Virus record (IMG/VR): IMGVR_UViG_3300045996_003734
Coordinates: 45,167-109,166 of that record
Source: a virus
Reading direction: 5' to 3' (one strand)
DNA: 64,000 nt
Positions 2,579 to 28,914 of this stretch are shown piece by piece; the first letter of the stretch is position 1, and each line of letters starts with the position of its first letter. Both the position numbers and the translations under genes were made by a program. The notes beneath the pieces were generated by a model. It was not told where the DNA came from, did no database searches, and was given only the letters and a program-made list of their open reading frames with translations.

Positions 2579-2582
2579 TTGC

Positions 2583-4546: not shown

Positions 4547-4574
4547 TGAGCCCGACTGGTCTAAACGCCGGGCC

Positions 4575-5528: not shown

Positions 5529-5728
5529 GAGGGCTGGTCGGGATGGTGCCAGGTGCCGGCGGCCTTGGCCCTCGACTCTGGCGCCTCGACCTCGCTCATG
5601 CCGCCGCGCCCGTTGCCGACGAGCAGCAGCGTTCGCCCGTCCGGGCCCGGGTCGCCCAGCGTGCGCGCCTGCAGGTGCCGGCCCTCCTTGTCGACGTAGA
5701 CGACGCGCAGCGGGTGCTTCCCGCTCAT
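5525..5728 (-). CDS. Small hypothetical protein
   Basis: ATGA overlaps with both neighbours. Confidence 0.6.
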   Translation of the reverse strand: MSGKHPLRVVYVDKEGRHLQARTLGDPGPDGRTLLLVGNGRGGMSEVEAPESRAKAAGTWHHPDQPS

Positions 5729-6153
5729 GGCGGCATCTGCGACAGGATGAGCTCCGCGGCCTCGTCCAAGATCGGACCCTCGAAGGGACCGAGGTTGTAG
5801 AAGTCGCGCAGGGGTATCTTTCGCCGGGGCTCGGGACTCACGTGGTAGACGTCATAGCTAACCAGCGACATGGCTTCTGCAAAGGTGTCGCTCCACGCTG
5901 GCGAGACGCTTCCCGCCATCATCCCGGAATCCTGTAGGATTTTTGCGCCGGCTCCGCTCTTCCGGCGGTTGGCCAGCGTCGAATCTTCGAGCCCCCTCCA
6001 GCCGGGACCCTCCGCCTCGAAGACGTCCGCGACGCCGGCGACGAGCAGCTCGGCGATGACCGGAAGCATGCCCGGCAACGCCTGCGCCTTGGCCTGCAGC
6101 GGCCGGAGCACGGTCGAGAGGTTGTGCTCGACCTTCAGCTCGAAGAACGACAC
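5725..6153 (-). CDS. Virion morphogenesis / tail completion protein (Mu gpG / P2 S-like)
   Basis: W..L..ST...R...KILQDSG.M..S and IP.R.F motifs. Confidence 0.8.
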   Translation of the reverse strand: MSFFELKVEHNLSTVLRPLQAKAQALPGMLPVIAELLVAGVADVFEAEGPGWRGLEDSTLANRRKSGAGAKILQDSGMMAGSVSPAWSDTFAEAMSLVSYDVYHVSPEPRRKIPLRDFYNLGPFEGPILDEAAELILSQMPP

Positions 6154-6627
6154 TCAGTAGCCCCCCGGTCGGGGCCGCCTCGCGTTCGGGGCGAACATGA
6201 ACTGCGGGCAGTCCGCGCTCGCGATGCGGCCGCGCACGTTCGGGTTGCGCCCCGCTTTCGCTTCGCCAACCGAGCGGAGCTGCCCTTGCACGATGAGCTC
6301 GAGCATCTTCAGCGCGTCGGTGCGGTGCGACGCGTACGGGGCGCCCTGCCCGCACCACTGCGGCTTGCCCTGCATGCCCTCGTACATGGCGATCGCGCAG
6401 AGCTGGCTCTTGACCGCGTCGTCCTCGGCGACGAGCGCTTCTCGCTGCTCGCGCGCCGGCCAAGCCTTCATGAGCACCGCCTCGCCCAGGCGCGTGGCCA
6501 CGACGCAGGCGACTGCAAGCCGAGGTCCCGGCTCGAGTCGCCCAGCGTCTGAGAACACCTGCGCAACGAATTGCGGCGGGTAGCGCTCCTCCAGGTCGAG
6601 CTGCGTAATGAGCGCCGGTGCGGGCAC
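6154..6627 (-). CDS. Head-tail adaptor (Mu gp36/DUF1320-like)
   Basis: DLEERY start, LCAIAMY and ALKMLELIVQGQ motifs; position after the capsid genes. Confidence 0.75.
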   Translation of the reverse strand: MPAPALITQLDLEERYPPQFVAQVFSDAGRLEPGPRLAVACVVATRLGEAVLMKAWPAREQREALVAEDDAVKSQLCAIAMYEGMQGKPQWCGQGAPYASHRTDALKMLELIVQGQLRSVGEAKAGRNPNVRGRIASADCPQFMFAPNARRPRPGGY

Positions 6628-6635
6628 CGGTCACC

Positions 6636-7232
6636 TCAGGAGTGGAGGAAGCCGCTCTGCTCGAGGTCTGCGAGCGTCTCCTTCGAGACGCGGTACACGA
6701 CCGCCTGCAGCCCGAGCTCCTGCTGAAGCTCGGCCACGTCGTCGTCCGACTTGGTGACGATGAGCACGTCGCCGGCCTTCGCGTGGAGGCGGCCGCCCTT
6801 GCCGACGCCCGCCACACCCGAGGCGATGGTGACGCACTCGTTCAGCTGGCGCGCGTTCTCGGGTAGGCCGGCGATGGCCGTGCCGGCATTCTTGGCAGCC
6901 GTGGTCGCCGCGGCCAGCGCGGCGGTCAGCTCCCCGACCTGCTGCTCGAGCGACTTGCGAGCTCCACGCTCGCGGTCGAGCTCGCCCTGCAAGCCGTTGG
7001 CGCGAGCCTCCGCCTGCGAGAGCTTCACTGCGAGCTCGCCCGTCTTTTGCTCGAGCTTGGCCTCCGCCTGCTGGCGGATGCGGGTCTCGTCGTTCGGGGG
7101 CGGGGCTACGCTCGCGGCCCCTGCGCCGGTCGCGGCCCCGCCCTCGGCAGTCGCGCTCTCGCCCTTCGCCGCGCCGGCACCCGGATCGAGGACCTCGGTA
7201 CCGCCCGCGGCTTGGTTCTTCGCCTTCGACAT
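6636..7232 (-). CDS. Coiled-coil hypothetical protein downstream of the capsid gene
   Basis: Heptad-rich central region; probable ATG at 7232. Confidence 0.6.
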   Translation of the reverse strand: MSKAKNQAAGGTEVLDPGAGAAKGESATAEGGAATGAGAASVAPPPNDETRIRQQAEAKLEQKTGELAVKLSQAEARANGLQGELDRERGARKSLEQQVGELTAALAAATTAAKNAGTAIAGLPENARQLNECVTIASGVAGVGKGGRLHAKAGDVLIVTKSDDDVAELQQELGLQAVVYRVSKETLADLEQSGFLHS

Positions 7233-7257
7233 TTGCGTCTTTCTCTCGAGCACCCTC

Positions 7258-8388
7258 TCAGGTGCTGAGCACGTCCTTGATGAGGCCGCCGGCGATGTTC
7301 GTCCCGAAGAACGTGGTCTCGCCGAAGCCGGCTTCGAACATGGTGCCGCCGTTGATGCCGCGGCCCTGCGGGATGTACTCGTTCGTCACGACGCCGGTGC
7401 CGCTGCGGCCCTTGGCGCGGAACGTCCAGCTGGTGGCGGTGCGCTTGCCGTCGCGCGGTAGACCCGGCGCCGGGTTCGACACCAGGACGACGTCGTCGCC
7501 GAGGATGTACTGCAGCGCGCCGCCAGCCGCCGGGATACGGCGGGCCGGGCAGATGTGAATGGTCGGCATGCCGACGATGTTGAGCTGCTGGTACCCCTGC
7601 ACGTCCGCAGCCTGGGCGATCTCCGGCTTGGGGCCGGCGGTGCCCATCGTGGTGTTGATGTACGCGCGCACGTTGTTGTCGGACAGGAACCAGTACGCGA
7701 CGTCGGGGTTCATGCCGATGTCGGTGATGGGCTGCGCCGACGCGAGGATGCGGGCGTGGATGTCCGCGCGAGGGTCCTTGGTCGAGCCGTTGTCCCACTT
7801 GAAGTTCGTGGTCAGCGACGTGCGGTTGTTGGCGTTCCAGTTGTTGAGGGTCGTGAGCGCACCGAACACGCGGATCTCGCGCGACAGGTACAGCTTGTTC
7901 ATGACCATCTCGCCGCTGGCCGCGCGCACGTCGTAGGCGTCGACCGCCTCGTTCTGCGCGCCCCACGGGATGAACGTCGCCAGACCGTGCTCGAAGGTCT
8001 GGTACTGCGTGGTCGCGCTGGCGTGCGCGATCTCGTTGATGGCGCCTTGCCGGCCCACCTCAGTGGGCACGTACTCGAACATGTTCTCGAGCGCGAAGTC
8101 GCGGCGGTTGCCCTTCTCCTTGTCGACCAGCACCACCGGGGAAAACAGGTCCGCGCAGTAGGCGAAGGGGCTGTAGCCGCCGAGGTAGGTGTCGAGCTCG
8201 CGCGCCTGGTCCCCGACCTCTGCCGGCGTCACGGCCATGAGCACGCGGGTGCCGGCCGCGCCGACGCCATCCACGTTTTCGGTCAAGGTGAAGAAGCGAT
8301 GGCCAGGAGGCGCACCGTTCTGATTCGAGAGAGTGTCGATGGCGAGCGGAAGCCCGTTGAAACTGGGCTGTCGGAGGGCTGCGTTCAT
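7258..8388 (-). CDS. Major capsid protein
   Basis: 376 aa; follows protease and decoration genes; RBS present; C-terminal GGLIKDV. Confidence 0.75.
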   Translation of the reverse strand: MNAALRQPSFNGLPLAIDTLSNQNGAPPGHRFFTLTENVDGVGAAGTRVLMAVTPAEVGDQARELDTYLGGYSPFAYCADLFSPVVLVDKEKGNRRDFALENMFEYVPTEVGRQGAINEIAHASATTQYQTFEHGLATFIPWGAQNEAVDAYDVRAASGEMVMNKLYLSREIRVFGALTTLNNWNANNRTSLTTNFKWDNGSTKDPRADIHARILASAQPITDIGMNPDVAYWFLSDNNVRAYINTTMGTAGPKPEIAQAADVQGYQQLNIVGMPTIHICPARRIPAAGGALQYILGDDVVLVSNPAPGLPRDGKRTATSWTFRAKGRSGTGVVTNEYIPQGRGINGGTMFEAGFGETTFFGTNIAGGLIKDVLST

Positions 8389-8436
8389 GATGAGGTGCGT
8401 TCCTTCAGAGGGTGACGAGCGAGAGAGCGAAGCGCC

Positions 8437-8823
8437 TCACGGCGCGATGAAGCGGCCCTTCCAGAGCTCGAGCTCGAAGAGCCCGTCAGCGCCGGCACAC
8501 GCCGACATGGCGCGACCCCAGATCGCACTCGCCGTGACAGCGGTAGCGAAGCGACCGTCGGTCCCGCATTGAACGAGTGCGTGGAGCGCGATAGCGGCCG
8601 AGCCTTTGGCCGTGACCTTGCCCTCGGTTTGCATCGAGCGGGTGCCGTTTTGCGGCAGGTCTTCGGTCGTCACGCCGCCAGGCAAGCTGGTGACCGCGGT
8701 GGGCAGGATGACTTCGTCCTGACCAACGCCGGGGATGACGCCAAGGCCCTTGCCGATGGCTGCGTTTACGTTCTTGGCCGTTCGGAAGTACGAGGGGCTG
8801 GTGATTTCTCTCGGAGTCGGCAT
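8437..8823 (-). CDS. Capsid decoration/cement protein (DUF2190-like)
   Basis: 128 aa Gly/Ala/Thr-rich ORF between protease and MCP. Confidence 0.6.
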   Translation of the reverse strand: MPTPREITSPSYFRTAKNVNAAIGKGLGVIPGVGQDEVILPTAVTSLPGGVTTEDLPQNGTRSMQTEGKVTAKGSAAIALHALVQCGTDGRFATAVTASAIWGRAMSACAGADGLFELELWKGRFIAP

Positions 8824-8881
8824 GGCTTTCCTCGGGTCGCTGTCAGTTCAAAATGGGAAGCGGTGGGTGTGGGCGCGGCGC

Positions 8882-10510
8882 TCAGAGCGCCAGCTGGCCC
8901 GTGCGGATGAAGCCGCTCGCGGCGCGGACCTGCGTCTGCAGCGGCAGGTCCTTGAAGCCGGGCGTCTTGTCCTTGTGAAACGCCGCGCACTTCTCGATTT
9001 CGTTGCGACCGGGGTAGGCCGCGAACAGCTGAACGTGCGCAGGCGGCGCGCCCGGGGCCCCGACGGCAGGAGCCGACGCCGGCGCGGGAGCGGCGGGCAC
9101 CACGACGCCGTTGAGCAGCTGGACGCCGTTCTGTCCGGCGACGAGGCTCTGCGAGAGCAGCGCCTTCGCTGCGTCGGGCCTCGGCAGGGGGTACTGCGCG
9201 TAGAACGCCGCGAGCTTGGTCTCCCGCTCCTTGGGGTCGTCCACGTTGCAGGCGAGTCGCGAGGTGAGGAGCAGCGGCTTGAACTTCGCCGCGGTGTCGC
9301 CGCTCAGGCCCATCGATGCGGCGATCTGCTCGACCTCCACCTCGGCCTCTTTCTTGTCCGCCGCGCCCAAGCGGTCGCGAGCGGCAGTCAAGCCGGCTAG
9401 GTACTCGTCGGCCTTCTTGGCCTTCTCGATGGTCTTGGCCGCGTCGCCGAGCAGCGCGGTCATGTCGTCAGACTCGAAGAGCCCGAGCAGCTGATCGAGC
9501 GTGTCGCCCTTGACCTTGGCCTTCTCGGCGGCAGCGAGCAGCACCGGCTCGGAGTCGCGGCAGTTGAACAGGTCGGCAAGCTTGCCGAGCAGGGCGGTCG
9601 CGAGAGCGGGAGCAGGGGCAGCGGGTGCGGTCATGGTGTTGTCCTCGGGGGCCGTTGGCGGCGAAGTGCTCGGGTCTGCAACGCCCATGACGAGCTGACC
9701 CGCCGTCGTGAGAATTTCGTCCGAGCTCGCGAGCACGCGCAGACCGAGCAGGCGGCGCACCGAGTCCACGAGGTAGCCAAAGCCATCGGGGAACGCGGCC
9801 GACGTCATGCCGTTCGCGACCGCGTTGCGCAGCGTCTCGATCTCTACGGCGACCTCCGCCGCGGCGGCGTCTCCCGGCAAGCCGAGCAGATCGCGCAGGC
9901 CCACGAGCGCCTCCTCAGCGCTGTCGGCCTTGCCGTAAACGCTCACGCTGGCGGCGATCGGCGCCATGCCCTTGATGAAAGGGTGATTGGTGAAGGCGAT
10001 GCTGGTGAGCAGCGCGCCGATCGGCTTGCCCGTTGCCGCGTCCTTCGCGCTCGGCCACACGGCTACGCTGGTCGACAGGTAGCCGCCCGCGCGAATCTGC
10101 TCTCGCGCCTGGTCGCTGAGCAGCGTGAGCGCCCACAGCTCGGCGCCGTTCTCGCCCTCGCGCAGCTGCAGCTCCGTCGCCCACGCCGGAGCCGGAGCGC
10201 CCGTGGAAGGCAGCGTACCCTCGGTCGGCGCCATCTCGCTCGCGTGTTCGTAGTCGTACGGCACAACGCGCTGCGTGCCGACGCCGTCGGGCCCCGGGCT
10301 GTACCAGGGGTTCGCGTGGAAGTTCGCGATGATTTGTTCGAACGACTTCCGCGTGAATTCGACGACGCGGCCGCTCGGGTGGCCCTCCCACTTGCCCTCG
10401 CGGGCGACCTGGATCCAGACGGCGCCGTCGTTCGCGACCTGCTCCGCGCTGAGCTTTACGGGTACGCCGAAGGCGCGGAGATGGAGCTTGGTGTCATTCT
10501 TGCGAGCCAC
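8882..10510 (-). CDS. Mu-like prohead protease/scaffold (gpI-like)
   Basis: WIQVAREG, DYEH, APAWA, GGYLSTS, FTNHPFIKGM motifs; helical scaffold-like C-terminus. Confidence 0.88.
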   Translation of the reverse strand: MARKNDTKLHLRAFGVPVKLSAEQVANDGAVWIQVAREGKWEGHPSGRVVEFTRKSFEQIIANFHANPWYSPGPDGVGTQRVVPYDYEHASEMAPTEGTLPSTGAPAPAWATELQLREGENGAELWALTLLSDQAREQIRAGGYLSTSVAVWPSAKDAATGKPIGALLTSIAFTNHPFIKGMAPIAASVSVYGKADSAEEALVGLRDLLGLPGDAAAAEVAVEIETLRNAVANGMTSAAFPDGFGYLVDSVRRLLGLRVLASSDEILTTAGQLVMGVADPSTSPPTAPEDNTMTAPAAPAPALATALLGKLADLFNCRDSEPVLLAAAEKAKVKGDTLDQLLGLFESDDMTALLGDAAKTIEKAKKADEYLAGLTAARDRLGAADKKEAEVEVEQIAASMGLSGDTAAKFKPLLLTSRLACNVDDPKERETKLAAFYAQYPLPRPDAAKALLSQSLVAGQNGVQLLNGVVVPAAPAPASAPAVGAPGAPPAHVQLFAAYPGRNEIEKCAAFHKDKTPGFKDLPLQTQVRAASGFIRTGQLAL

Positions 10511-10545
10511 GCGGGCAGCTTGGCCCGCACGTGGTCGCCCTGACC

Positions 10546-10860
10546 CTAGCCGCCGACGAGCTCGTCGGGCTGCCCCGCGCGGCGCCGCACGAGCTTGCCG
10601 TCCACGATGGTGACGACCTCGTCGCGGTCTTCACGCGTCAGCGCGTCGTCCACCGCGGCGTCGTTCTCCTTGCCGGCCTTCGTGCGGATGAGCTCGTTCG
10701 CGCGAGCCATCACCTCGGTGGGCTTGGCGACCAGGCGGAAGAACAGGCGCACGCCGTCGGGCGTGAGGCCTCCGGTGCGCTGGTACTCGGCGAGCTGCCG
10801 CGCAGCGGCCTCCACGTCATCGCGTGGAGGCGCGCCCTTCGGGAGCAGCGGGGCCGTCAT
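10546..10860 (-). CDS. Small protein coupled to the MuF fusion; candidate immunity protein/inhibitor
   Basis: ATGA overlap with the MuF stop; function inferred from position. Confidence 0.55.
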   Translation of the reverse strand: MTAPLLPKGAPPRDDVEAAARQLAEYQRTGGLTPDGVRLFFRLVAKPTEVMARANELIRTKAGKENDAAVDDALTREDRDEVVTIVDGKLVRRRAGQPDELVGG

Positions 10861-13616
10861 CCGGCCCCCAGCATTCGCGCCTGAACCTTTGCCAACTCCT
10901 TAAGCATTTCTTCCTTCTGCTCGGCCGTCAAGCCGAGCTCCCGCACCCACTCCGACACACCCTCCGCCCCGCTACCGCTCGAGCGAAGAAGCGCCGCTCT
11001 TTCGTGCGCTTTCGCCATCAGCTCCAGCGCCTCCTCCGAGCCGATGCCCTTCAGCTTTTGGAGCCGGTACCGGATGGCGTTGATCTCTCCGGAGTACGCC
11101 ATGCCCGCGTCCGAGAGCTTCAGCTTCGGTACCAGCTGGCGCATCACGCGGCGCGCCGTGAGCTCGGTCCCGATCTCCTCGACCACCACGCTGTGCGGGG
11201 TGACGTCGTGGAGGTTGCTGCCCGAGAGGCTGTGCACCTCCTCGTGCACCATGATGCGCAGGCCGTCGAGCTCCTTCCGGATCTCGGGCGTGAGCGTCTT
11301 GATGGGTCCGGAAGAGATGCGCTGCATCGCGCGCCGCGCGCGGTCGACGACGTCGGGCGAGTAGGTGACCTTGGCCGTGCCTGGCTCGAACATCGCCTCG
11401 AAGCCGTGCACCGCCACGTCCTCGCCCGAGACGGTCATGTCGCCGAGCACCGCGTCGCGCGCCTGCGGCACCGTCTCCCGCACCAGGTCGCGGAGCGCAA
11501 GGCGCGCCTCGGCGCCGTTGGCGAGCTGCCCGCTTGCCGTCCGCTCGAGCGCGGCGTTGAAGCGTCCGGGCAGCGCCGCGCGGCGCTCGGCCGTTGCGGC
11601 CTGCTGCATCGCAGCGCGCGCAGCCTCGAGCTTGCGCTGCGCCTCGGCCTCCGCGGCGGCCTTCGCGAAGTGGTCGGCAACCCGGTCCCGCTTCGCCGCG
11701 CTCTTCTTGAAGTACGCCTTGATTTCCTCGTACTTCGGATCCCCCGGGGCGACGTCGGCAGACATCGGGATGAGCCCGCCGTCCCCGTTCCCTCGCGCTC
11801 GCAGGAAGGCCTTGCCGACCTGCTCGCCGTCCACCTCGAGCATCGCCAGGTCGCGCACCCGAGGCAGCGCGTCCACCGCCTCGGCGGGGATGTGCGGGAA
11901 CGCCTTTTTGAACTGGCCCTTGAGGTTCTTGAGCTGGGTTGGGTTCGTGTCGAAGCCAGCGCGCGCCCAGACGTATTGGCCGTCCCACGCGGCCTCGAGC
12001 TTGATCTTTTTGACGCCCAGCTTCTCGTACTGCTCGAGCTGGTTGACGAGGATCCGGCTGCCGATGCCCGAGCCTTGGTGCTCCTTCGCCACCCGCAGGT
12101 AGCCGTGGTGCACCACCATGTCGCCGTTCTTCTCGAGCTTGTAGTCGCGCTGAACGGTGGCGACGTACTTCCCCTCACGGTCGACGATGCGCGCCTTGAG
12201 GTCGATGGCGTTGGACGTCGCGCTGATGCGGAAGTCGTCTAGCCGGTGCCCGTCGTCGAACGTCGCGGGCGAAACGAGGGCTTGGTACTCCTCGGGTGAG
12301 AGCGCCCGGCCAAAGCCCTTCTGGCTGACCGCGTGCAGGTGCTTCAGCTCGCTCGCCTCGAGCTCGATGGCGGCCGCCGTGAATTGGGCGTGGGTCGCTG
12401 GCGCAGCGGCGACCGGCAGCGGCACTGGAGGCAGCCGGATGGGCGGCGCCGGCGGCGCTGTGGACGGCGTGGGCAGCTCGATTGCGGGCGGCGGCACGGG
12501 GCGCGGGGGCGGAGCACGCACCGGCACAGGCGGGCGCTGCGGTGCCGGCGGCGGGGCGAGCGCGGCGGCCGGCACGCTGATGAGCTGGCTGGTGCCGGAC
12601 TCGAAGCCGGGGTCCGGCAAGCCTTTGGGGACCGGGCCCACCTCGATGCCCATGCGCTTGAGCCACGCCAGCGTGCGCGCGATGACGCGGCAGCGGCAGT
12701 TGAAGCCGAAAGGCGGGTAGGCCAGCTTCCAGAACGGGTGATTCGCCGGGAGCACGATGCCGTGCGCGCGCTTGTGCGTCTCGCGCTGGCGCGCGTCGGT
12801 GACGCCTCGGATCTGCCAGTACGGCAGCGCGGCCAGCACGGCGGGTTGGCTCATCTCGGCGCGCCGCCCGCTCGCCACGGCGCTCATGCTGTTCGTGCGG
12901 AAGATGGTCTCGACGTGGCTCGGGTTGTCTGGCGTCCAGCCCGCCGTCTTCAGGCGCTCCTTGGCGAACTTGCGGAAGTCTCGGAGGTTGGCGCCCTTCG
13001 GTGTGCTGCCGGGGGTGCCGGGCCGCCTGCCCTGCCCGTCGCGCAGCTGGCGGACGAGCTCGGCCTTGGTGGCGTTGAGCAGCTCCTCCTTGGCCATGCC
13101 GGCGACGGTGAAGGCCTGCTTCCGCGCACCCTCCTGCATCGCGCGAAACGCCGCCGGCGGCACGACCTTGCGCTGCTCGAACTGCGCGATCGCGGTCTCG
13201 CCCGGGAGGTGCACCAGGCCCGGCCGGCGCCGCACCGCGAACGTTGCCGGCGCCAGCTCCACGTCGTGCTCGCGCTCCCACTGCGAGTCGAGCGCACCGA
13301 GCATCAAGCCCCGCAGAATGGTCTGCTCTATCTCCTTCGCGAACGCGCCCACGTCGATGCGCGCGCGCTCGAGCGCGCTTCGAATTTCGAACTCCGTTTC
13401 GCTGTCGCCGATAGCCTCGAGGACGGCCTCTCCCCAGGCGGCCGTGATCCGAGTTGCCGCAGCCACGCCGTCTTCGACGAGCGCCTCCGGAGAACCGTTC
13501 GGGCTGTCGGGTTGCTCGGCGCAGCAGACGTGCTCGCCCAGCAAGTCCTGAGCGTTGAGCGAGGCGTAGAACCGCTCGAGCTCGAGGAGCTCCGCGCGCG
13601 CCTGCTCCGCGTTCAT
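10857..13616 (-). CDS. MuF (gpF/SPP1 gp7-like) head protein fused to GNAT acetyltransferase and zincin-like metallopeptidase domains
   Basis: MuF motifs TIFRTN, DARQRETH, PPFGFNCRC; Pro-rich linker; GNAT motif A HQGSGIG...WARAGF; HEEVH plus downstream Glu. Confidence 0.85.
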   Translation of the reverse strand: MNAEQARAELLELERFYASLNAQDLLGEHVCCAEQPDSPNGSPEALVEDGVAAATRITAAWGEAVLEAIGDSETEFEIRSALERARIDVGAFAKEIEQTILRGLMLGALDSQWEREHDVELAPATFAVRRRPGLVHLPGETAIAQFEQRKVVPPAAFRAMQEGARKQAFTVAGMAKEELLNATKAELVRQLRDGQGRRPGTPGSTPKGANLRDFRKFAKERLKTAGWTPDNPSHVETIFRTNSMSAVASGRRAEMSQPAVLAALPYWQIRGVTDARQRETHKRAHGIVLPANHPFWKLAYPPFGFNCRCRVIARTLAWLKRMGIEVGPVPKGLPDPGFESGTSQLISVPAAALAPPPAPQRPPVPVRAPPPRPVPPPAIELPTPSTAPPAPPIRLPPVPLPVAAAPATHAQFTAAAIELEASELKHLHAVSQKGFGRALSPEEYQALVSPATFDDGHRLDDFRISATSNAIDLKARIVDREGKYVATVQRDYKLEKNGDMVVHHGYLRVAKEHQGSGIGSRILVNQLEQYEKLGVKKIKLEAAWDGQYVWARAGFDTNPTQLKNLKGQFKKAFPHIPAEAVDALPRVRDLAMLEVDGEQVGKAFLRARGNGDGGLIPMSADVAPGDPKYEEIKAYFKKSAAKRDRVADHFAKAAAEAEAQRKLEAARAAMQQAATAERRAALPGRFNAALERTASGQLANGAEARLALRDLVRETVPQARDAVLGDMTVSGEDVAVHGFEAMFEPGTAKVTYSPDVVDRARRAMQRISSGPIKTLTPEIRKELDGLRIMVHEEVHSLSGSNLHDVTPHSVVVEEIGTELTARRVMRQLVPKLKLSDAGMAYSGEINAIRYRLQKLKGIGSEEALELMAKAHERAALLRSSGSGAEGVSEWVRELGLTAEQKEEMLKELAKVQARMLGAG

Positions 13617-15217
13617 CGCCCGCCGATGGTCGTGAGCAGCTTCAGCACGTGCGCGGCGCGAACGAGCTGCAGGGGGTCCCGGTCGGTGAACGTGTCTTGG
13701 TCAGGCAGGCCTTGGCCGTCATCGCCAAGGGGCGACGCGCCGCCGGCCCCGCTCTGCTGTCCGAATCCACCACCACCGCCGCCGCCGCCGGGCGACCCGA
13801 AGCCGCCCGCGGGCTGCGGCGCCTGCTGCACCACCAGGTCCTCGGGTTGCGGCTCGGCAAAGCCCACGCGCTCGTACACCTCCGAACGCTTGAGCGGGAT
13901 GCCCAGGCCGAACACCTTCGCGGTGCGCTCGATCTCCTGCCCACGCGTCGGCGTCACTTCGTACTTGAGCTCGATGCGGGGCGCGTGATCGAGCGCCTCC
14001 GCGCCGAAGTTCAGGACGATGATGTCCGCGCCGAGCTGCTCGGTGAGCAGGTCGGAGATGTCCCAGCCGTCCGCCGCGTACACGCTAGACTGCTCGTCCT
14101 GCCCGACCTCGTCGCCGGCGGAGCCGAGCGCGCCCGGCTTAGCGTCGTTCGTGCGCGTGGTCCCGGAGACCAGCTTGCTGATCTCGTCGTTGCATTCCGC
14201 CGCGACTTCCTTGTGGATGGTGCCGGAGTTGTGGTCGGGAGTCTCGAGCTGCAGCTTGACGCCGGGCGGCATCACGCCGGTGGCGTTCGCTCCGAGCGCG
14301 TCGGCGGAGATGGCCGCCTCGTCCAGCGTCTCCTGCTGGATCTGACCGTCCTCAGCCCAGACGATGCGCCAAGGCTTGCCGAACACCTCCAGCAGAATCA
14401 GGCGTTCTCGCCACGAGAAGCGCTTGAAGAAGCTGAAGTACATGCCGCGCGGACCGAAGCCCTCGCGCTCTGGGTAGTCGTTGAACTGCTGCGGCGTGAA
14501 GCTGATGAACTTGAACGGGATCTGCCGCAGCTCGAGCCCGCGCCGCTCGAAGGCGCCACCGGCGAAGCTGTCGTCACGCACGCGCAGCTCGCGCTCGGGG
14601 CCGAAGCTCAGCCGCCGCGGATGAATCCAGTTCAGGCTGTCGATGCGCCACTTGACCGTGCTGCCGGCGGGGTTCTCGCGCCAGACCTTCTCGAGCGCGG
14701 CGCGCCCGTGGCACTGCGCCCAGTTGAGCCTGCGCACCTGCTGGCGCCAATTTGGGATCCAGGCGAGCTGCTGGCGGACGACGTCGGCGTAGAGCTTGGC
14801 CTTGCTTGGGTCGATGCCGTCGCCGGAGGCCGCGATCACGTTGGGCTTGATGCTGGCGAGGGCTCGCACCCGCTTGCCCACCGCCGACGTGAAGTGCGGG
14901 TCGATGGCCAGCGTCTCGTACTGGAGGTCGGTGAGGTCCCGCATGTAACCGAGCTCCGCCGAGCGGACGGCTTGCTCGATGAACTCGGGGGTGAGGGAGC
15001 GGCCGTAGTACCGGCGGTTTTGCTCGGTGAGGGGGAGCTCCCCGCCGAACATCGATTCCTGCAGGTTTTGCCGGGCGACGAACTGATTGCCCGCAGCGTC
15101 GAAGCGGAGGCGGATGCCCTGGCGGGCAGCGCGCTCGATGGCGGCGATGCGCTGGCGTTCCTCGAGCGGGGCTCGCTGGAGGATACCCTGCCGGGTGTGC
15201 AACGGCGCCAGCTTCAC
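13613..15217 (-). CDS. Portal protein (Mu gp29/DUF935-like)
   Basis: DPHF...KR, EVFGKPW, EISKLV.G.T.T motifs; GTG at 15217 with GGAGG RBS. Confidence 0.88.
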   Translation of the reverse strand: MKLAPLHTRQGILQRAPLEERQRIAAIERAARQGIRLRFDAAGNQFVARQNLQESMFGGELPLTEQNRRYYGRSLTPEFIEQAVRSAELGYMRDLTDLQYETLAIDPHFTSAVGKRVRALASIKPNVIAASGDGIDPSKAKLYADVVRQQLAWIPNWRQQVRRLNWAQCHGRAALEKVWRENPAGSTVKWRIDSLNWIHPRRLSFGPERELRVRDDSFAGGAFERRGLELRQIPFKFISFTPQQFNDYPEREGFGPRGMYFSFFKRFSWRERLILLEVFGKPWRIVWAEDGQIQQETLDEAAISADALGANATGVMPPGVKLQLETPDHNSGTIHKEVAAECNDEISKLVSGTTRTNDAKPGALGSAGDEVGQDEQSSVYAADGWDISDLLTEQLGADIIVLNFGAEALDHAPRIELKYEVTPTRGQEIERTAKVFGLGIPLKRSEVYERVGFAEPQPEDLVVQQAPQPAGGFGSPGGGGGGGGFGQQSGAGGASPLGDDGQGLPDQDTFTDRDPLQLVRAAHVLKLLTTIGGR

Positions 15218-15555
15218 GAGCCGCGCCTCCACCACCGACGCGCAGGCGCCGGCGGCGGCGCGGCCTGCGCCGCTCGCGCCGCCTGCTCGTACTGCGCTCG
15301 CGCCCCGAGCTCCGCCGTGCGCAGCTGCGCGAGCTCGCTCTCGACCTGGGCCGCAAGCACCTCGATGCGTGAACACCACCGCTCAGTCAGCGCCCAAAGG
15401 AAGGCCGAGCGAACGGCGCCCAGCGGGCCGCCTGCCTTCGCTTCCGCCGCCCGCCACGTCGCTGCAGTCCGGCGCAGCTCGCCCACGAGGCGCTCGGCAA
15501 GCTCTCGCCTACCGGTTGCCAAGCCAAGGGAATGAGCCAGCTGGGTCGCGTCCAC
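15214..15555 (-). CDS. Hypothetical protein
   Basis: Helical ORF; GTGA overlap with the portal start. Confidence 0.55.
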   Translation of the reverse strand: MDATQLAHSLGLATGRRELAERLVGELRRTAATWRAAEAKAGGPLGAVRSAFLWALTERWCSRIEVLAAQVESELAQLRTAELGARAQYEQAARAAQAAPPPAPARRWWRRGS

Positions 15556-15593
15556 GCTGGACGATGTCAGCCCAGGCGCGACCTGGCCCCGCG

Positions 15594-18104
15594 TCAGGAG
15601 TCTTCCACGGTCGGGTCGCGCTCGAGCTCGGTCACCCGGACGGTGAGATGGGCGTCGGCGCCGAGCGTGTTTGTGACGCTGAGGCGCAGGTTGTTGCCGC
15701 TAATCGAGGCGTTAACGGTCAGGTTCACGGAGTCGCCCGAGGTGAACAAGCTGGACTGCACGGGCGTGCTCGCGGCGCCGCTTCCGGAGCGCTGGGTCTC
15801 AACGTGCACGATCTTCGTGCCTCGGTCGCCGGACGCATCCTCGGCCAGGACCTTCACGCGGAAGAGGTAGCGGGTGGACGGCAGGAGCGGCACGTCGATG
15901 TTGGCCGTGGTGCCGGCGCTCGCCACGTCCACGCTCGACAGCGAGCCGACCAAGCCGCCGATTCCGTCGTTCTCGATGGCCGCGGCTCCGATCTTGGTGT
16001 TCGTGCCGCCGTCGCTGAACGGCGAGCCGTTCCCCGAGATTCGCGTCTCCGCGATGCGCGTGCCGTCAGCGGAGCCTTCGATCTCGATGCCGTTCTGGGT
16101 GTTGCCGGTGACGACGCTGCCGCCGCCGATGAAGGCTCGGTCTCCGCGGATCTGGATGCCGTCGTCGGTGTTGTCGCGTGCCGTGACGCCGAGGAGGGAG
16201 GCGTCGTCGGCGCCGGCCGCAATGAGGAAGCCGTCGGCGTTGCCGTAGCTCGTGGTGCCGACGACCTTGTTTCGCAGCCCGTTCAGGATGACGCCGCGCG
16301 AGCAAGCGGTGAGCGAGCCACCTTGCACGACCGCGTCCGGCGCGTTCAGGTCGATGCCGCTCGAGAGGCCCGCGGACCCCGTCCCTGTCGCGTCGAAGCC
16401 CTTTACCTCGCAGAACACGGCCGTCGGCTCAGTGGTCAGCCCGGCCACGGCGCAGGCCTCCGCCGTGCAGTCGGTGACCTTCGTGCGGGGCCCGCGGATG
16501 CGGAAGCCGGAGCCCACCGCGGTGAAGGCGTTGCAGTCCGTCAGCCGCGTGAGGTCCGCCTCGCTGTCGACCAGGAAGGCCTCGTCGCCGGTGTCCTCGA
16601 CGTCGACCCCGATCACCTTGTTGCGCTTACCGTAGACGGTCACGCCGAGGAGCATGTCCTTCACGTAGCCGCCCTCGACCGTGACGTGGTCGGCCGCGAT
16701 GTAGACGCCTAGCGAGGTGGCGCCGTCGTTGCCGCGGCAGTTGAAGTTGCTGAGGTGCGCCCTGTGCCCGCCGAAGCCGACGCCGGGGTCGCCCATCACA
16801 CCCTCGCGGAAGCGGATGTAGTGCCCGTCGGGCGGCCCGTCGCTGGTCCAGACGTTCGTCACTTCGCACGGTCCCCGGATGTCCAAGCCGGCTTGCTCGG
16901 TCAGCGTCGTGTCGAGGCCCCAATGGCGCAGGTCGAGGTGCGCCAGGGACATCGAGCCGTTGCCGTTGCCGACGTTTTTCATGTCGATGCAGTCGGCGCC
17001 GGTGTGGTGGATGTACAGGTGGGAGAGGTCCACGCGCTTCTTGTCGCCGCCCTGCAGCCCCAGGCCGTAGCCGTAGCAGTTCTTGATCTCGACGCGGTGG
17101 ATGCGCAGACCGTCGCAGCCGCCCGTCCCCGTACGGAGACCGTGGACGGACGAGGTGTTGCCCGAGCCCGGGTTCACGAGCTGGCTGTTGCCGTCGAGAG
17201 TGAGGTCGCTGATCTCGATCTCGGTCGCGCCGTCGATGTTGAACAGGTTGGCGTTCGCGCCGTTCGCCGCGCGGATGATGGTCTTTCCCCGCCCTGCTCC
17301 GCGAAGCGTGACGTTGGCCAACCCGGTTAGCGAGAGGCACACGTCATCGATCGCGGACTCGTTCACCAGGTACGCGGCGCCGAGCCCGTCGGGCACGTAG
17401 ACCAGGCCCGCTCCAGCGGTGTTTGCGGCCGCGAGCGCCGCCTGAAGGGCCACGCGGTTGGCCGCCGCGAGCGCCGCCGGCGACGCTCCGTACGTGCCGA
17501 GCTTCACGTTGAAGTAGGCGAATAGGTCGCGCACCGCGATGCCGCCGTCCTTCAGCTCCTTGCCGTTGGCGCTCTGGAAGACCGGCACGCGGTCGACCAC
17601 GGCCGAGGCCGGCCCGAGCACGTCACCACCGCCCGGAGGCACCACGTCCACGTCGTCGTTCTGGTTGTCAGCCCAGCCGCCCGCCGAGTACTGCGTGCCC
17701 TCGGTGGCGATAATCTTGCGGCGGCCGAGCGCGCTCCGAACGCACACCAGGCGCTCGAACACGAAGTCCGCGCTCGGTCGGTCGTTCCGGTCGAGGCCTC
17801 CGTTCACGAGGCAGCGCACCACCCAGGAGGCCGCACCGGTGGCGGGAACGTTGAGCGAGACCGCCGTCGCCGGCGTCGCCGCGTCCACCTTCTGCCCCGT
17901 GCTCGAGCCGACCAGCGTGAGCAGCGCGGCCCCCTTGCTGGCCCTCGGCGACTTGTCGTCGCTGGCGCTGTACACCTCGTACGTCACCCGCCGCACTACG
18001 CCGGTGAGCGCCTCGAGCTGGAGCACGAGCGACGCGCCGCTCACCGTGTCGTAGCCACGCGCCGAGCTCGGGCTACCTTGGATGGTGAAACGGGCGAGGT
18101 TCAC
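15594..18104 (-). CDS. Right-handed beta-helix (pectate-lyase-like) tailspike/depolymerase
   Basis: GDVLGPAS...GKELKDGG linker; NV..YGA...N..ALQAAL...G.VYVP.G start; many parallel beta-helix repeats; probable GTG start at 18104. Confidence 0.8.
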   Translation of the reverse strand: MNLARFTIQGSPSSARGYDTVSGASLVLQLEALTGVVRRVTYEVYSASDDKSPRASKGAALLTLVGSSTGQKVDAATPATAVSLNVPATGAASWVVRCLVNGGLDRNDRPSADFVFERLVCVRSALGRRKIIATEGTQYSAGGWADNQNDDVDVVPPGGGDVLGPASAVVDRVPVFQSANGKELKDGGIAVRDLFAYFNVKLGTYGASPAALAAANRVALQAALAAANTAGAGLVYVPDGLGAAYLVNESAIDDVCLSLTGLANVTLRGAGRGKTIIRAANGANANLFNIDGATEIEISDLTLDGNSQLVNPGSGNTSSVHGLRTGTGGCDGLRIHRVEIKNCYGYGLGLQGGDKKRVDLSHLYIHHTGADCIDMKNVGNGNGSMSLAHLDLRHWGLDTTLTEQAGLDIRGPCEVTNVWTSDGPPDGHYIRFREGVMGDPGVGFGGHRAHLSNFNCRGNDGATSLGVYIAADHVTVEGGYVKDMLLGVTVYGKRNKVIGVDVEDTGDEAFLVDSEADLTRLTDCNAFTAVGSGFRIRGPRTKVTDCTAEACAVAGLTTEPTAVFCEVKGFDATGTGSAGLSSGIDLNAPDAVVQGGSLTACSRGVILNGLRNKVVGTTSYGNADGFLIAAGADDASLLGVTARDNTDDGIQIRGDRAFIGGGSVVTGNTQNGIEIEGSADGTRIAETRISGNGSPFSDGGTNTKIGAAAIENDGIGGLVGSLSSVDVASAGTTANIDVPLLPSTRYLFRVKVLAEDASGDRGTKIVHVETQRSGSGAASTPVQSSLFTSGDSVNLTVNASISGNNLRLSVTNTLGADAHLTVRVTELERDPTVEDS

Positions 18105-25067: not shown

Positions 25068-25281
25068 GGCCGCCCTCCCGCTCCAAGGCCTCGGCCACGT
25101 CCGCCATGGCCGCCAGGCGCTCGGCCCAGACGCGAGCGTTCGCCGGCGACAGGTCGAGCCCGGCGCCGTTGCTGAACTCGAGGATCACCTTGCCCGGCTC
25201 CGCCGACAGGTGGGCTGGCATTACGGACGGCCGAGCGGCCGCGCCTTGCCGATGGGCGGCCAGCTGAATGACCTTACCCAT
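25060..25281 (-). CDS. Small hypothetical protein
   Basis: Overlaps the int stop; MGKVIQL start. Confidence 0.55.
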   Translation of the reverse strand: MGKVIQLAAHRQGAAARPSVMPAHLSAEPGKVILEFSNGAGLDLSPANARVWAERLAAMADVAEALEREGGRG

Positions 25282-26815
25282 GGCGACGGGCCTCCTCCGC
25301 GATCTCCGCGACCGCCCCGTCCACGTCTCCGGCCAGGACCTTCTCGAGTGCGCGCGCTACCGCGAGGCCGGGCCGAAGTGGTAGGCTCGGGTCAACATCG
25401 GCCAACCGCTCCAGGCGGTGGACCCGGAGCAGGTTGTCGCGACGAGCCCCAAAAGGATCGTCTAACGAATCGTCTAGACCGCCCGCCGAGGCGACCGAGG
25501 GCCGACTCTCGCCCTCCGAATCAGCGCCAGAAACGGCATTTGGGGACCCTGCGCCGCCGGCGGGAGAATTCGAATCCCTCCCTCTCCGCAGCAGTTCCTC
25601 CGGTGAAACCGCAGATTCACCGGAGGCGTTAGACGATTCATAGACGAATCGCTGCAGGCTCTCCGGCAGAGGCGCGAACGGATCGCCGATGCTGGCGCCC
25701 AGCGCCTGGTGTCCGCGGCGGATGTAGATCTGCGTGGTCTTGAAGTCGGAGTGCCCAGCTCGCTCGCGAATCATGTTGTCCGTGTCTCCCCGCATGGCCA
25801 TGTAGGTGATGCCCGTTGCTCGCAGGTCGTGGAAGCGCAGCGCGCGCACACCCTTGCGGTTCTTCTTGTGGAGCGCCGGCCGGTCCACGCCGGCCGTAAG
25901 TAGGTCCTCACGGAGCACGTCGTACGGTCGCTCGACGATCTCGAACACCGACTCTCGACTGCGCCGCCGGTACATGGCCTCGAGCATGGGCCTTAGGAGC
26001 GGCTCGATGCTGAAGTGACGGGAGCGGCCTGTCTTCGTGTACTCGTGAAAGACTTGGGCCTTCGAGTCGAAGGACCGGTTCACGCGGACCATGCCGTGCG
26101 CTACGTCCACCCCGAGGCGCCAGAGCAGCGCGAGCACCTCACCCGGCCGGCAGCAGCAGTAGACGGCCACGGCGTAGAGGGCGCGCCGCTCTCGCGGCAC
26201 CTCCGGGCACGCTAGCAGCTTCTGGAGCTCGACCGGGAAGAGCCACTGCAGCTCCACCTCGCCCGGCGGGTCCGGCGGCACTACGCCCTCGGCAGGGTTT
26301 CGGGACAGCAGACGGAGCTCGCGCTTCTTGGAGTGCGCCAGGTCGCGGAACATCTTGGAGGCCACGGCCCAGCAGTTCTGGGCGGTCTTGGCGCTGAACG
26401 TGACCTCGCCGTCCTGGGCCTTCTCGTCCAACCACTGCACGAGGTCCCGGAGGTCGTCCGTCGTCACCTCGTCCACGTGCTTCTTGCCGATGATGGGGCT
26501 GATGTGGAGCCGGTACCGGTAGAGGTCCGAGCGCAGGGACTTCTTGCTCGAGCGCGACGGGATCCAGAGACGCTCGAAGTATTCGTCGCACGTCGGGCGC
26601 GTGCTGATAGGCGTCTTATCCTGCGGGGGCGACCAGACCTTGCCCTTAGCCGCCAGGCTCAGCTTGCGGGCAACCTCGCGCGCGTCGTCGTCCGACAACG
26701 CCGGATCGATCGGGATGTACGGCCGGACCGTCTTCCCCTCCGCGTTCTTGGCTGTGATGCGCGCGTACAGCGTGGTCGCGTTGACGCGCCAGATTGTGCC
26801 CTTGGTCTTGGTCAT
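25274..26815 (-). CDS. int: Tyrosine integrase with attP inside its 3' coding region
   Basis: Catalytic R (CRPGE), K (TKTG), HDLR, GH, Y (TQIY, ~aa 364); ~150-aa extension beyond the catalytic Tyr. Confidence 0.95.
   Translation of the reverse strand: MTKTKGTIWRVNATTLYARITAKNAEGKTVRPYIPIDPALSDDDAREVARKLSLAAKGKVWSPPQDKTPISTRPTCDEYFERLWIPSRSSKKSLRSDLYRYRLHISPIIGKKHVDEVTTDDLRDLVQWLDEKAQDGEVTFSAKTAQNCWAVASKMFRDLAHSKKRELRLLSRNPAEGVVPPDPPGEVELQWLFPVELQKLLACPEVPRERRALYAVAVYCCCRPGEVLALLWRLGVDVAHGMVRVNRSFDSKAQVFHEYTKTGRSRHFSIEPLLRPMLEAMYRRRSRESVFEIVERPYDVLREDLLTAGVDRPALHKKNRKGVRALRFHDLRATGITYMAMRGDTDNMIRERAGHSDFKTTQIYIRRGHQALGASIGDPFAPLPESLQRFVYESSNASGESAVSPEELLRRGRDSNSPAGGAGSPNAVSGADSEGESRPSVASAGGLDDSLDDPFGARRDNLLRVHRLERLADVDPSLPLRPGLAVARALEKVLAGDVDGAVAEIAEEARRHG
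25456..25650. promoter_or_regulatory. Integrase arm-type sites flanking the att core (consensus TAGACGAWTC)
   Basis: Minus-strand copies at 25456-25464 and 25467-25476; plus-strand copies at 25630-25639 and 25641-25650; the right pair has an 11-bp period, the left pair 12 bp. Confidence 0.75.
25569..25589 (+). other. attP core, matching a tRNA-Ser 3' end (TTCGAATCCCTCCCTCTCCGC)
   Basis: T-loop plus acceptor 3' strand of bacterial tRNA-Ser; no tRNA 5' half upstream. Confidence 0.82.
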
Positions 26816-27141
26816 CAGACCGCCTCCCGGAAGCCGCGGCGAAGGAGCGCCGCCTCGATGGGGTCGATGGTCGGAGCGGGCGGTGGCGCGGAAGCGGGCG
26901 CGACCCGCAGCACTGGCTCGACGCGAGCCTGCTCGATGTAGCGGTGCATGGCCGCGCGCTCCACGAGCACCCGGCCCGCGCGCTTGAACCCCGGCAGCGT
27001 GCCCTGGCGGACCAGCCGGCAGTGGGTCTGCTTGGGCAGCGGCGACGTGTCCTGGTCGTAGTACCGGGGCCCGTCATTCTGCTCGAGTCGGTCGGCGACC
27101 GCGTCGGCGAGCTGGTGGAGGAGGGCGCGGAGGTCGCTCAC
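26815..27141 (-). CDS. xis: Excisionase-like HTH protein
   Basis: LVRQGTLPGFKRAGRVLVERAAMHRYIE motif; directly upstream of int. Confidence 0.75.
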   Translation of the reverse strand: MSDLRALLHQLADAVADRLEQNDGPRYYDQDTSPLPKQTHCRLVRQGTLPGFKRAGRVLVERAAMHRYIEQARVEPVLRVAPASAPPPAPTIDPIEAALLRRGFREAV

Positions 27142-27357
27142 CCTTCGACCTCCATGTACTCGAACCCGCACCCAAGGCAGGTCACGTCGGTGATGCCGTC
27201 CCTGTAGCAGCGGCTTATCTGCACGTGCTCGCAGGTGACGAACGGGCCGCGCAGCCGGAACGCCTTACGCTTCGGCTTGGCCGCCAGTCCGAGCTGCGCG
27301 TCCAGACGCCGCTCCACCTCGGCGTGGTCGACGTAGTCCAACGGCATCGGTTGCATC
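27138..27357 (-). CDS. Small Zn-ribbon protein (start approximate)
   Basis: C.H ... C..CG; GTGA overlap with xis. Confidence 0.45.
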
Positions 27358-27884: not shown

Positions 27885-28604
27885 CTAGGCCGCCCTCCGC
27901 GCCACGCCCTCGGCTGCCCCACCCCGAGCGGCATCGTCCCAAGCCTGAACGCAATGACGCCGGAGGGCGTCAGATTCAGTGCAGGGGCGCAGCGGGGCAG
28001 GCTGCGGCGCGCAGCGGAATGCCACAGCATCGGGCAAAAAAAAGGGCGCCGCGCGGTCGATTCGAACGACCTCATTCCCCGCTTCACCGGCCGGCATGGC
28101 GGGGACCCGGCTCAACAGACCGGTGACCTTCCCACAGGTCGAGCGCGCGTCTTGTGGTGCTAAGTGCGAGGTGGCCAGTTCCAGCAGCCTGGCTTCGGCG
28201 TCTCGCTGAAGGGAACGTCCGTGTTGAAGAACTGTCCCGTCGGGTTCAGGATGCAAAGGCCCACGCTGTCGTTGGGCCCGAAATTCACCTGCGTCACCAC
28301 CGCCGCTCTCGGCGCCGGCAGGTACTCGCCGCCCGGCGTTCCGTAGCTCTGGTAGTGCACGATCCGTCCCACGCTCGGTTTCTGGTCCATTGGTTTCTCC
28401 GTTCAGCTCGAGCACGCACAGCGCCTCGAGAGCAGTCATGCGGGCGCGGCCGAGCTCGAGGTCACGCAGCGTCCGGACGCCGATGCCGAGCTCGTGGGCG
28501 GCGCGCTCCTGCGACCAGCCGCGGGCAACGCGGGCTCGACGGAGGCGACCGGCAGCCGCCCGCCTCGCCCCACCCCGCAGGGTGAACAGCTTTCCCTCAG
28601 ACAT
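27885..28604 (-). CDS. XRE-family HTH protein (domain at ~28390-28604; long overlapping tail doubtful)
   Basis: LRRARVARGWSQERAAHELGIGVRTLRDLELG. Confidence 0.55.
   Translation of the reverse strand: MSEGKLFTLRGGARRAAAGRLRRARVARGWSQERAAHELGIGVRTLRDLELGRARMTALEALCVLELNGETNGPETERGTDRALPELRNAGRRVPAGAESGGGDAGEFRAQRQRGPLHPEPDGTVLQHGRSLQRDAEARLLELATSHLAPQDARSTCGKVTGLLSRVPAMPAGEAGNEVVRIDRAAPFFLPDAVAFRCAPQPAPLRPCTESDALRRHCVQAWDDAARGGAAEGVARRAA
28036..28071 (-). terminator. Possible intrinsic terminator (T8 run after the tRNA-like stems)
   Basis: A8 on the plus strand at 28036-28043, rare in this GC-rich DNA. Confidence 0.45.
28044..28149 (-). tRNA. Atypical tRNA-like RNA (anticodon GTT/Asn) with 35-nt variable arm, imperfect acceptor stem, no CCA
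   Basis: D-arm GACC-tgtgggaa-GGTC; anticodon arm CCGGT-ctgttga-GCCGG; T-arm GGTCG-ttcgaat-CGACC; followed by T8. Confidence 0.65.
28160..28390 (-). CDS. Conserved small phage protein (PSVGRIVHY...W.WP family)
   Basis: Recognisable motif; GGAGA RBS. Confidence 0.75.
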   Translation of the reverse strand: MDQKPSVGRIVHYQSYGTPGGEYLPAPRAAVVTQVNFGPNDSVGLCILNPTGQFFNTDVPFSETPKPGCWNWPPRT

Positions 28605-28914
28605 GGTCACCTTGAAGCAAGCGCTCGCGGACGTGCTCGACCGCTGCCGCGAAGCGCTCGTCCTGGAGCCGAGCCCGAGCGGCGCGCAGCAGGGCGGTAG
28701 CCGCCCCGCCCGTCCGACCGAGGGCCACGGCCACCTCGGCATCGCTCATGACGGTGTGGTCGTGGAGCAGCAGAGCGGCGACGTGGCGAGCGAAGCCGAG
28801 GCTCCGGGCGATGCGAGGGCCGCGGAGGTCGACGACGGCGATCCCGAAGTGCTCAGCAGCCCGCTCGATGATGAGCGGAGCCGGGAGCAGACGGAGGGCT
28901 GGTGCGGCTCCCAT
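28597..28914 (-). CDS. DnaA C-terminal (domain IV)-like HTH protein
   Basis: IIE..AEHFGI...DL.G.R......ARHVA..L...T.MS..E....LGR pattern. Confidence 0.75.
   Translation of the reverse strand: MGAAPALRLLPAPLIIERAAEHFGIAVVDLRGPRIARSLGFARHVAALLLHDHTVMSDAEVAVALGRTGGAATALLRAARARLQDERFAAAVEHVRERLLQGDHV

Follow-up and report, generated by a model that had tools for sequence, protein, structure and literature searches.

A hairpin-bearing tRNA-Asn-like gene in a polymorphic tRNA slot of a temperate phage

What kind of gene carries an asparagine anticodon, every arm of a tRNA and, between the anticodon arm and the T-arm, a variable region of 35 nt? The question is raised by an element on the minus strand of a 64,000-nt stretch of viral DNA, referred to here as the window, which comprises bases 45167–109166 of the 109,166-bp IMG/VR virus record IMGVR_UViG_3300045996_003734 and consists of high-GC DNA of a temperate phage. 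A first-pass annotation, made from the letters alone, described the element as a tRNA mimic rather than a working tRNA and proposed several regulatory or protective roles for it. The tRNA-like features that it listed, including the Asn anticodon and the long variable arm, were all located in the sequence. The element is a real but one-off odd tRNA gene; that it represents a new kind of RNA is not proven. It is safe to describe it as a tRNA-derived gene of the Asn(GUU) type that sits in a tRNA slot, that is, at a site where related phages carry tRNA genes. Whether it still works as a tRNA is a matter that sequence alone does not decide, and the arguments on either side are weighed below.

The element forms a five-arm tRNA cloverleaf on the minus strand at 28149–28044, followed by a run of eight T residues (T8, 28036–28043). 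Its position 1 lies 10 nt past the stop codon of an upstream 76-aa gene. The acceptor stem opens with a GC-only 5' strand, CGCGCGC (28143–28149), which is separated by U8 and C9 from the D-arm (28125–28140). The D-arm has the stem GACC/GGTC, extendable to 5 bp, and the loop TGTGGGAA; G18, G19 and A21 are present, and position 14 is U. The anticodon arm (28107–28123) consists of a 5-bp stem, CCGGT/GCCGG, and the 7-nt loop CTGTTGA, with U33 in place, the anticodon GTT at 28116–28114 and G at position 37. The variable region (28072–28106) is made up of a single G, a 30-nt hairpin (28105–28076) and ATGA. Within the hairpin, a 7-bp stem (TCCCCGC/GCGGGGA) is followed by a 3x3 internal loop, 3 bp and a GGCC loop. 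The T-arm (28055–28071), GGTCG-TTCGAAT-CGACC, has a consensus T-loop and the G53–C61 pair. The acceptor 3' strand, GCGCGGCG, and a terminal CCC occupy 28044–28054, and the paired strand runs from 28054 to 28047. No CCA is encoded at the 3' end, where CCC passes directly into T8. The acceptor stem can be read in two ways. The bulge-free stem of 5 bp given by the first-pass annotation is confirmed and continues with G.G and C.C mismatches, leaving G73 as discriminator; the alternative is a 7-bp stem with one bulged G and C73.

Stem lengths and spacing are otherwise standard, with 4 bp in the D-arm and 5 bp each in the anticodon arm and T-arm; only the acceptor departs, as it reaches 7 bp only with the bulged G. 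Of the residues expected at key tRNA positions, U8, G10, G18, G19, A21, U33, G53, T54, T55, C56, A58 and C61 are present. The five-arm cloverleaf is the minimum-free-energy fold in RNAfold, and mean pair probabilities are 1.00 for the D-arm, 0.84 for the anticodon arm, 0.98 for the variable arm, 1.00 for the T-arm and 0.67 for the acceptor. The fold energy does not differ significantly from that of shuffled sequences (z = -0.23), a comparison that is uninformative because the DNA is 69% GC. Within the 109-kb record, the T-arm, anticodon arm and D-arm sequences each occur only once as exact words.

Standard tRNA detection, which had been suggested as a check, passes over this structure. ARAGORN in its default mode calls no tRNA anywhere in the window, and Rfam returns no match to it either at gathering thresholds or at E<=10. 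The reason was located by a deletion series in which the apex of the variable hairpin was shortened by two bases at a time and each variant was submitted to ARAGORN at default settings. Every variant with a variable region of at most 27 nt is called as tRNA-Asn(gtt), and none is called at 29 nt or above; a script-built series derived from the window sequence and an earlier set of hand-typed variants agree. Since shortening alone restores the default call, arm length is the only block to detection. ARAGORN accepts no class II arm as long as this one, which bears out the description of the element as non-canonical, together with G37 in place of A37 and the missing CCA. For comparison, ARAGORN makes two false calls per 4.4 Mb of block-shuffled genome.

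The same experiment defines the class of the tRNA. When the whole 30-nt hairpin is removed, G and ATGA remain as a standard 5-nt class I variable loop and ARAGORN calls a 75-nt tRNA. Because this loop is left behind, the element is read as a class I tRNA body into which a hairpin has been inserted, between positions 44 and 45, and it does not belong to the Ser, Leu, Tyr or Sec type. A long arm is present, but the anticodon is GTT, the D-arm is of class I form and the hairpin-less core is still called a tRNA; the acceptor/T geometry is 7/5. A covariance model built on the element (R1) retrieves true tRNAs of other phages, aligned with the variable arm deleted. Its best foreign matches among loci collected around the neighbouring gene are all normal tRNAs, for Lys (33 bits), Met (29 bits), Asn (25–26 bits) and Trp (24 bits), and a tRNA-Asn at locus L267, located through its identical T-arm 17-mer, scores 30.5 bits. 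Other phages have this 17-mer of the T-arm in true genes for tRNA-Asn, tRNA-Ile and tRNA-Pro as well.

The inserted hairpin has a further peculiarity: its apex, GCCGG-CCGGT, repeats both strands of the anticodon stem in swapped order (28076–28123, minus strand). The repeat could reflect a duplication or a template switch, or could be merely a CCGG palindrome. The swapped strands enable an alternative ARAGORN fold, a tRNA-Gly(GCC) with a 22-nt 'intron', which was rejected, as it splits the 7-bp variable stem and gives the loop TTGCCGG; to our knowledge, bacteria have no splicing of the kind that this fold would need. The hairpin was also considered as a repeated mobile palindrome. This idea was discarded when no second copy was found in the record at up to six mismatches.

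The surroundings of the element point to how it came to be there. Self-BLAST resolves the record into two collinear, diverged copies, with 73–93% identity, of a phage of about 62 kb, arranged head to tail. Copy A covers record positions 1–62148 and its end is window 1–16982. Copy B, which holds the element, begins at record position 62149 (window 16983) and continues to window 64000, where it is cut off by the end of the record. In phage A, the 76-aa gene is followed by a 70-nt spacer with hairpins, a tRNA-Trp(CCA) gene, 60 nt and then CCC-T8-GCCC. This tRNA-Trp (genome c[11311-11384]; 54 bits in Rfam) is the only standard tRNA of the record. The element of copy B lies at the syntenic site: the flanks are 83–88% identical between A and B and T8 with the adjoining GCCC is kept in phage A, while between the 76-aa gene and the T-run the two phages have nothing in common. 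In a metagenomic relative, L181 (80% protein identity), spacer hairpins of the A type are followed directly by T7-GCCC and there is no tRNA (L181:365-460). Because L181 combines hairpin and T-run without a tRNA, the upstream small gene probably had the T-run as its ancestral terminator tail, and it looks as if tRNA cassettes have been placed ahead of it. Copy B lacks the ancestral terminator hairpins, and there the T-run directly adjoins the acceptor stem. The slot, from the stop codon of the 76-aa gene to the T-run, is polymorphic: it is empty in L181, occupied by tRNA-Trp in A, and filled with tRNA arrays or degenerate tRNA-like elements in other phages. An origin of the element in the phage A tRNA-Trp, or in the tRNA-Asn genes that relatives carry, was considered and rejected, since similarity is confined to generic tRNA positions.

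The position of the element in a slot that holds tRNA-Trp in A and arrays in relatives, and its composition of a class I tRNA body plus a hairpin, together point to a simpler origin. The proposal of a mimic rather than a working tRNA survives in part: the element is tRNA-shaped and non-canonical, as stated, and the specific functions suggested for it are not supported.

How far the element departs from a functional tRNA-Asn can be read position by position. A14 is near-universal in tRNAs, where it pairs with U8; the element has U at position 14. G15 faces A48, so that no R15:Y48 pair is formed. In the anticodon loop, CT-GTT-GA, position 37 is G instead of A. In tRNAs for ANN codons, A37 bears t6A, a modification that is excluded here because the base is G. 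Bacterial tRNA-Asn has U1–A72 as its first pair and G73 as discriminator, and the genes of relatives are consistent with this: all seven aligned tRNA-Asn genes, which lie close to the same 76-aa gene, as well as the L267 tRNA-Asn, start with T and have the loop CTGTTAA. The element starts with C1, has no U1–A72 pair and offers G73 only in the bulge-free acceptor reading. The top of the acceptor is formed by either a bulge or two mismatches, in keeping with its pair probability. These deviations touch folding (positions 14 and 15:48), decoding (position 37) and identity or processing (acceptor top and 1:72) and, along with the missing CCA, argue for an impaired decoder.

Relatives and targets of the element were sought widely. 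A blastn search of 50,697 INPHARED phage records found no homologue. Searches of IMG/VR with exact 17-mers from the anticodon arm, D-arm and T-arm, and with a gapped probe for the variable stem, returned only chance matches or ordinary tRNAs. Covariance model R1 revealed no long-armed relative among 240 loci that were anchored on the protein of the neighbouring 76-aa gene and drawn from IMG/VR, GTDB genomes and JGI metagenomes, and no homologue in four Nocardia genomes. BLAST against 401 genomes of the order to which Nocardia belongs was likewise negative, which makes 405 actinobacterial genomes in all. About 25 genomes share a 22-nt stretch with the arm apex, but it lies inside a conserved housekeeping protein gene and was dismissed as chance. 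No host tRNA with the T-arm of the element occurs in the four Nocardia genomes. The searches provided no long-armed homologue in which compensatory base changes could be sought. Three IMG/VR phage contigs carry elements with an identical 17-nt T-arm (L272:10232-10317, L268:5807-5940 and L276:5447-5580, all on the minus strand). Each has a paired acceptor stem and a non-canonical or enlarged interior and receives no ARAGORN call; in L272 it terminates in A-CC and a T-rich run comes next, much as in the element studied here. Antisense targets were sought in the 109-kb record for the arm apex, anticodon arm and D-arm (16–17 nt, at most two mismatches, both senses, with the element's own opposite strand set aside), and none was found. 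The 5' strand of the variable arm gave a single match with two mismatches, at genome position 94737; this is no more than chance provides, given an average of 0.2 for shuffled probes.

The explanation that we prefer, and to which we give an even chance, is that the element decodes poorly or has been retired from decoding. It would then be a pseudo-tRNA of recent origin or, at most, a tRNA-Asn of weak activity, with no new dedicated function. This explanation is favoured because the deviations fall at key positions, because degenerate tRNA-like elements are common in slots of this kind, and because engineered insertions of hairpins into class I variable loops gave only marginal tRNA activity in work cited in PMC7590224. 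Several observations weigh against it. The five helices are intact with one irregularity, and the inserted hairpin is well paired; long neutral decay is unlikely, because the helices have been preserved while the flanks differ by 12–17% between A and B. The core scores above the default ARAGORN threshold, as ordinary tRNAs do, unlike the degenerate elements of relatives that need the relaxed setting -ps85. A singleton, moreover, gives no measure of either selection or decay. A rival explanation is a working variant of tRNA-Asn, charged and translating, in which G37 and the bulky arm make the molecule a poor substrate for the tRNA-cleaving defence or toxin nucleases of the host, an idea put forward for phage tRNAs generally (PMC10264068). 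We regard this as unlikely. The cloverleaf is complete, with a 7-nt anticodon loop, U33 and GUU, and its core passes ARAGORN by default; G73 is available in the bulge-free reading; and an Asn tRNA is almost 'expected', in that relatives with the neighbouring gene often carry tRNA-Asn(GUU) together with tRNA-Trp(CCA). Set against this, AsnRS and AspRS, as class II enzymes, approach a tRNA from its variable side, so that a 30-nt hairpin may clash with them. G37 precludes the t6A37 normally needed by ANN readers, two core tertiary pairs are lost through U14 and G15/A48, the imperfect acceptor top lacks the U1–A72 pair of relatives' tRNA-Asn genes, and conserved homologues are missing. Published precedents point both ways: phage tRNAs whose anticodon loops are altered where nucleases cut have been described (PMC10264068) and the translation apparatus can tolerate extended variable arms in engineered tRNAs (PMC7590224), whereas the hairpin insertions into variable loops that the latter paper cites were only marginally active. 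A bolder reading is a natural 'hairpin-tagged' but chargeable tRNA-Asn, in which the variable-loop hairpin would serve as a handle for a protein of phage or host or as a block to host tRNA-cutting enzymes. Such a tRNA would be protected, sequestered or routed apart from the host tRNA-Asn, and would be nature's equivalent of the aptamer-tagged tRNAs made by engineering. Its first candidate partner would be the conserved SH3-like protein whose gene ends 10 nt before the element and is met repeatedly in phage tRNA arrays. We consider this a long shot.

Equally unlikely is a tRNA mimic that does not decode and serves a separate purpose. It might be a decoy for enzymes that bind or cut tRNAs, an RNase P processing site by which the upstream mRNA acquires its 3' end, the stem of a terminator ahead of T8, or a tRNA frame presenting a protein-binding hairpin. 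The intact minihelix of acceptor and T-arm, combined with off-consensus decoding features, would fit such a role, as would the well-paired inserted hairpin, the absence of the ancestral terminator hairpin of A and L181, and the position of the element right against the conserved T8. The L272, L268 and L276 elements also join a canonical T-arm and acceptor to a non-canonical interior, in L272 with a T-run as well. Against this, no homologue was found to indicate selection on the mimic features, which also leaves the decoy and attenuator roles put forward in the first-pass annotation without support; a simple terminator scan gives no call at the element; and its anticodon arm is fully standard in shape, unlike those of known non-decoding tRNA-shaped RNAs. 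P1 C4 and P4 CI RNAs are RNase P-processed antisense immunity RNAs that pair with repeated target sites in the same operon. A regulator of this type, also proposed, would need a counterpart of that kind, and no complementary site for the element exists in the record under the search conditions given above. A missense tRNA is far less probable still. It would be charged by SerRS through its long variable arm and would insert Ser at Asn codons, as SerRS charges allo-tRNAs with long variable arms and many anticodons, including non-serine ones (PMC5389517, PMC7590224). The arm is indeed long and helical and G73 is present in the bulge-free reading, but other features disagree: a class I body with a D-stem of 4–5 bp and an 8-nt loop, a 5-nt variable loop once the hairpin is gone, an acceptor/T geometry of 7/5 rather than 8/4 or 9/3, four unpaired bases 3' of an arm far longer than natural Ser arms, and a mismatched acceptor top. 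Least credible of all is a chance structure, in which a GC-rich terminator region happens to resemble a tRNA. The unremarkable fold energy and the lack of an Rfam match speak for it. It is close to refuted by the shuffles, the deletion series and synteny: a consensus T-arm, a D-arm with GG and a loop with U33 all stand at correct spacings, the shortened-arm variants are called by default against the very low false-call rate of shuffled DNA, and the site is syntenic to a real tRNA gene.

If the impaired decoder is taken as the working explanation, its expression can be outlined. The element lies within the minus-strand early operon of copy B and no promoter of its own was found, which makes operon transcription probable. 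Transcription would start from a promoter-like site at 29646–29619 (minus strand). RNase P is expected to cut at position 1 of the element, and the 3' end would be formed at T8 or trimmed back from it. In the order of transcription, the promoter-like site is followed by helix–turn–helix (HTH) genes, the 76-aa gene, the element, T8, a conserved block, small open reading frames (ORFs), an HTH_17 xis-like gene (26815–27171, minus strand) and a tyrosine integrase gene (25274–26815, minus strand). The boundary between the phage copies does not coincide with the integrase/att region. For this reason the record is not a simple tandem prophage. It is a chimera assembled from two related phages that occur together, or else a real heterodimer.

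Two further reading frames meet the locus. The block directly after T8 (27888–28037, minus strand) is about 88–92% identical between A and B and is missing from L181. Its frame (VAFRCAPQPAPLRPCTE...) has its first 17 codons identical in A and B, and four of four substitutions are synonymous. This suggests a gene of about 50 codons with a TTG or GTG start in or after the T-run. The comparison of A with B makes a conserved stretch of coding sequence or of DNA likelier here than a second structured RNA. An XRE-type HTH gene (HTH_3, E=7e-8) begins with an ATG at 28604 and occupies window 27885–28604 on the minus strand, and substitutions between A and B fall mostly at third codon positions. The frame runs for 240 codons without an in-frame stop and is open through the 76-aa gene (which uses another frame), the element, T8 (read as PFFL) and the block beyond it. 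In phage A the same frame is also open, through the true tRNA-Trp; the open lengths in A and B differ by 108 nt, a multiple of three, and the middle part is not conserved as protein. The open frame could be a shadow ORF, a product of the high GC content, or else a true gene that lacks a stop. A 285-codon ORF at 27885–28742 was rejected as a real gene across the element, on the grounds that the A frame crosses a bona fide tRNA-Trp and the amino acids are not conserved between A and B.

The 76-aa gene upstream of the element (28160–28390, minus strand) belongs to phrog_2293. Its paralogue in phage A (genome ~11456–11686, minus strand; 83% DNA identity) precedes the tRNA-Trp. Thirteen residues of the protein are invariant across phyla, and it is found in prophages of Actinomycetota, Paenibacillus, Acidobacteriota, Myxococcota and others (loci L006–L259). 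Its predicted fold is a small SH3/Tudor-like barrel (pLDDT 92). Searches of Pfam, NCBIfam, the Atlas and the PDB, the last by both sequence and fold, assign it no function; there were only weak PDB matches (bL19 and chromo domains, E~0.3). The association of the gene with tRNAs, mostly Trp and Asn, is recurrent but not universal, and most of the 240 loci anchored on it have no tRNAs. In Mycobacterium phage Yuna and its kin, a tRNA-Trp lies 50–100 nt downstream of the gene. Three large Gordonia-type phage records have Trp and Asn tRNAs adjoining it, Nocardia prophages have tRNAs on both sides (13 in L087), and in L184 it is placed amid seven tRNAs. Degenerate tRNA-like elements also occur nearby, at L182:1584-1660, L072:1911-1995, L087:845-916, L184:2061-2134 and L100:1913-1981. 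These retain an intact acceptor and T-arm and have aberrant D or anticodon parts. To be called by ARAGORN they need -ps85, where a call is made at all, and the labels given are Thr(cgt), Ser(gga), '???(ac)', His(gtg) and '???(caac)'. At two loci, tRNAs with 8-nt anticodon loops, reported by ARAGORN as 'atcc' and 'tgag', adjoin the gene (L061:1759-1834 and L089:1376-1452).

The weight of a single, unconserved example is modest. Should the RNA prove to be made and charged, it would follow that a class I tRNA can naturally bear a 30-nt helical insertion in its variable loop. Standard finders would then miss such genes purely through a length limit, which would bear on censuses of phage tRNAs and on tRNA engineering. 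The comparison of A, B and L181 provides a clean case of tRNA cassettes being swapped at one fixed point, ahead of the T-run that follows a conserved small gene.

Known systems resemble the element in different parts. The tRNAs of actinobacteriophages and prophages (RF00005; the Yuna-type and Nocardia examples) share its slot, cloverleaf, consensus T-loop, G18 and G19, U33 and, in tRNA-Asn, the GUU anticodon. The element differs from them in its 35-nt variable region, U14, G37, C1, imperfect acceptor top and lack of CCA, and in that it goes undetected by ARAGORN and Rfam as it stands. P1 C4 and P4 CI are likewise small structured RNAs of temperate-phage early operons, and RNase P could release the element as it does them; neither of them forms a complete cloverleaf that includes an anticodon arm, and they have the complementary sites that the record lacks for the element. 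The tRNAs of cluster C1 mycobacteriophages, for which anticodon-loop changes have been proposed as an escape from anticodon nucleases (PMC10264068), offer a parallel for the change from A37 to G beside the anticodon. Those tRNAs are otherwise canonical and conserved, whereas the element is a singleton with several further defects and no known nuclease target site. Class II tRNAs and allo-tRNAs have, like the element, a helical extra arm between the anticodon arm and T-arm (PMC5389517). The arm of the element is longer (a 30-nt hairpin with 10 bp in two segments) and is combined with an Asn anticodon, a class I D-arm and a residual class I loop. The 12–13-bp acceptor branch of allo-tRNAs and tRNA-Sec is split 8/4, 9/3 or 8/5 (PMC5389517), as against 7/5 here. 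The architecture of the element is also found among engineered molecules. V-Spinach tRNAs and aptamer-tagged allo-tRNAs are man-made, with known protein or ligand partners, and the element is known from sequence only; they share with it the same design, in which an extra hairpin is carried by the variable loop or arm (PMC7590224).

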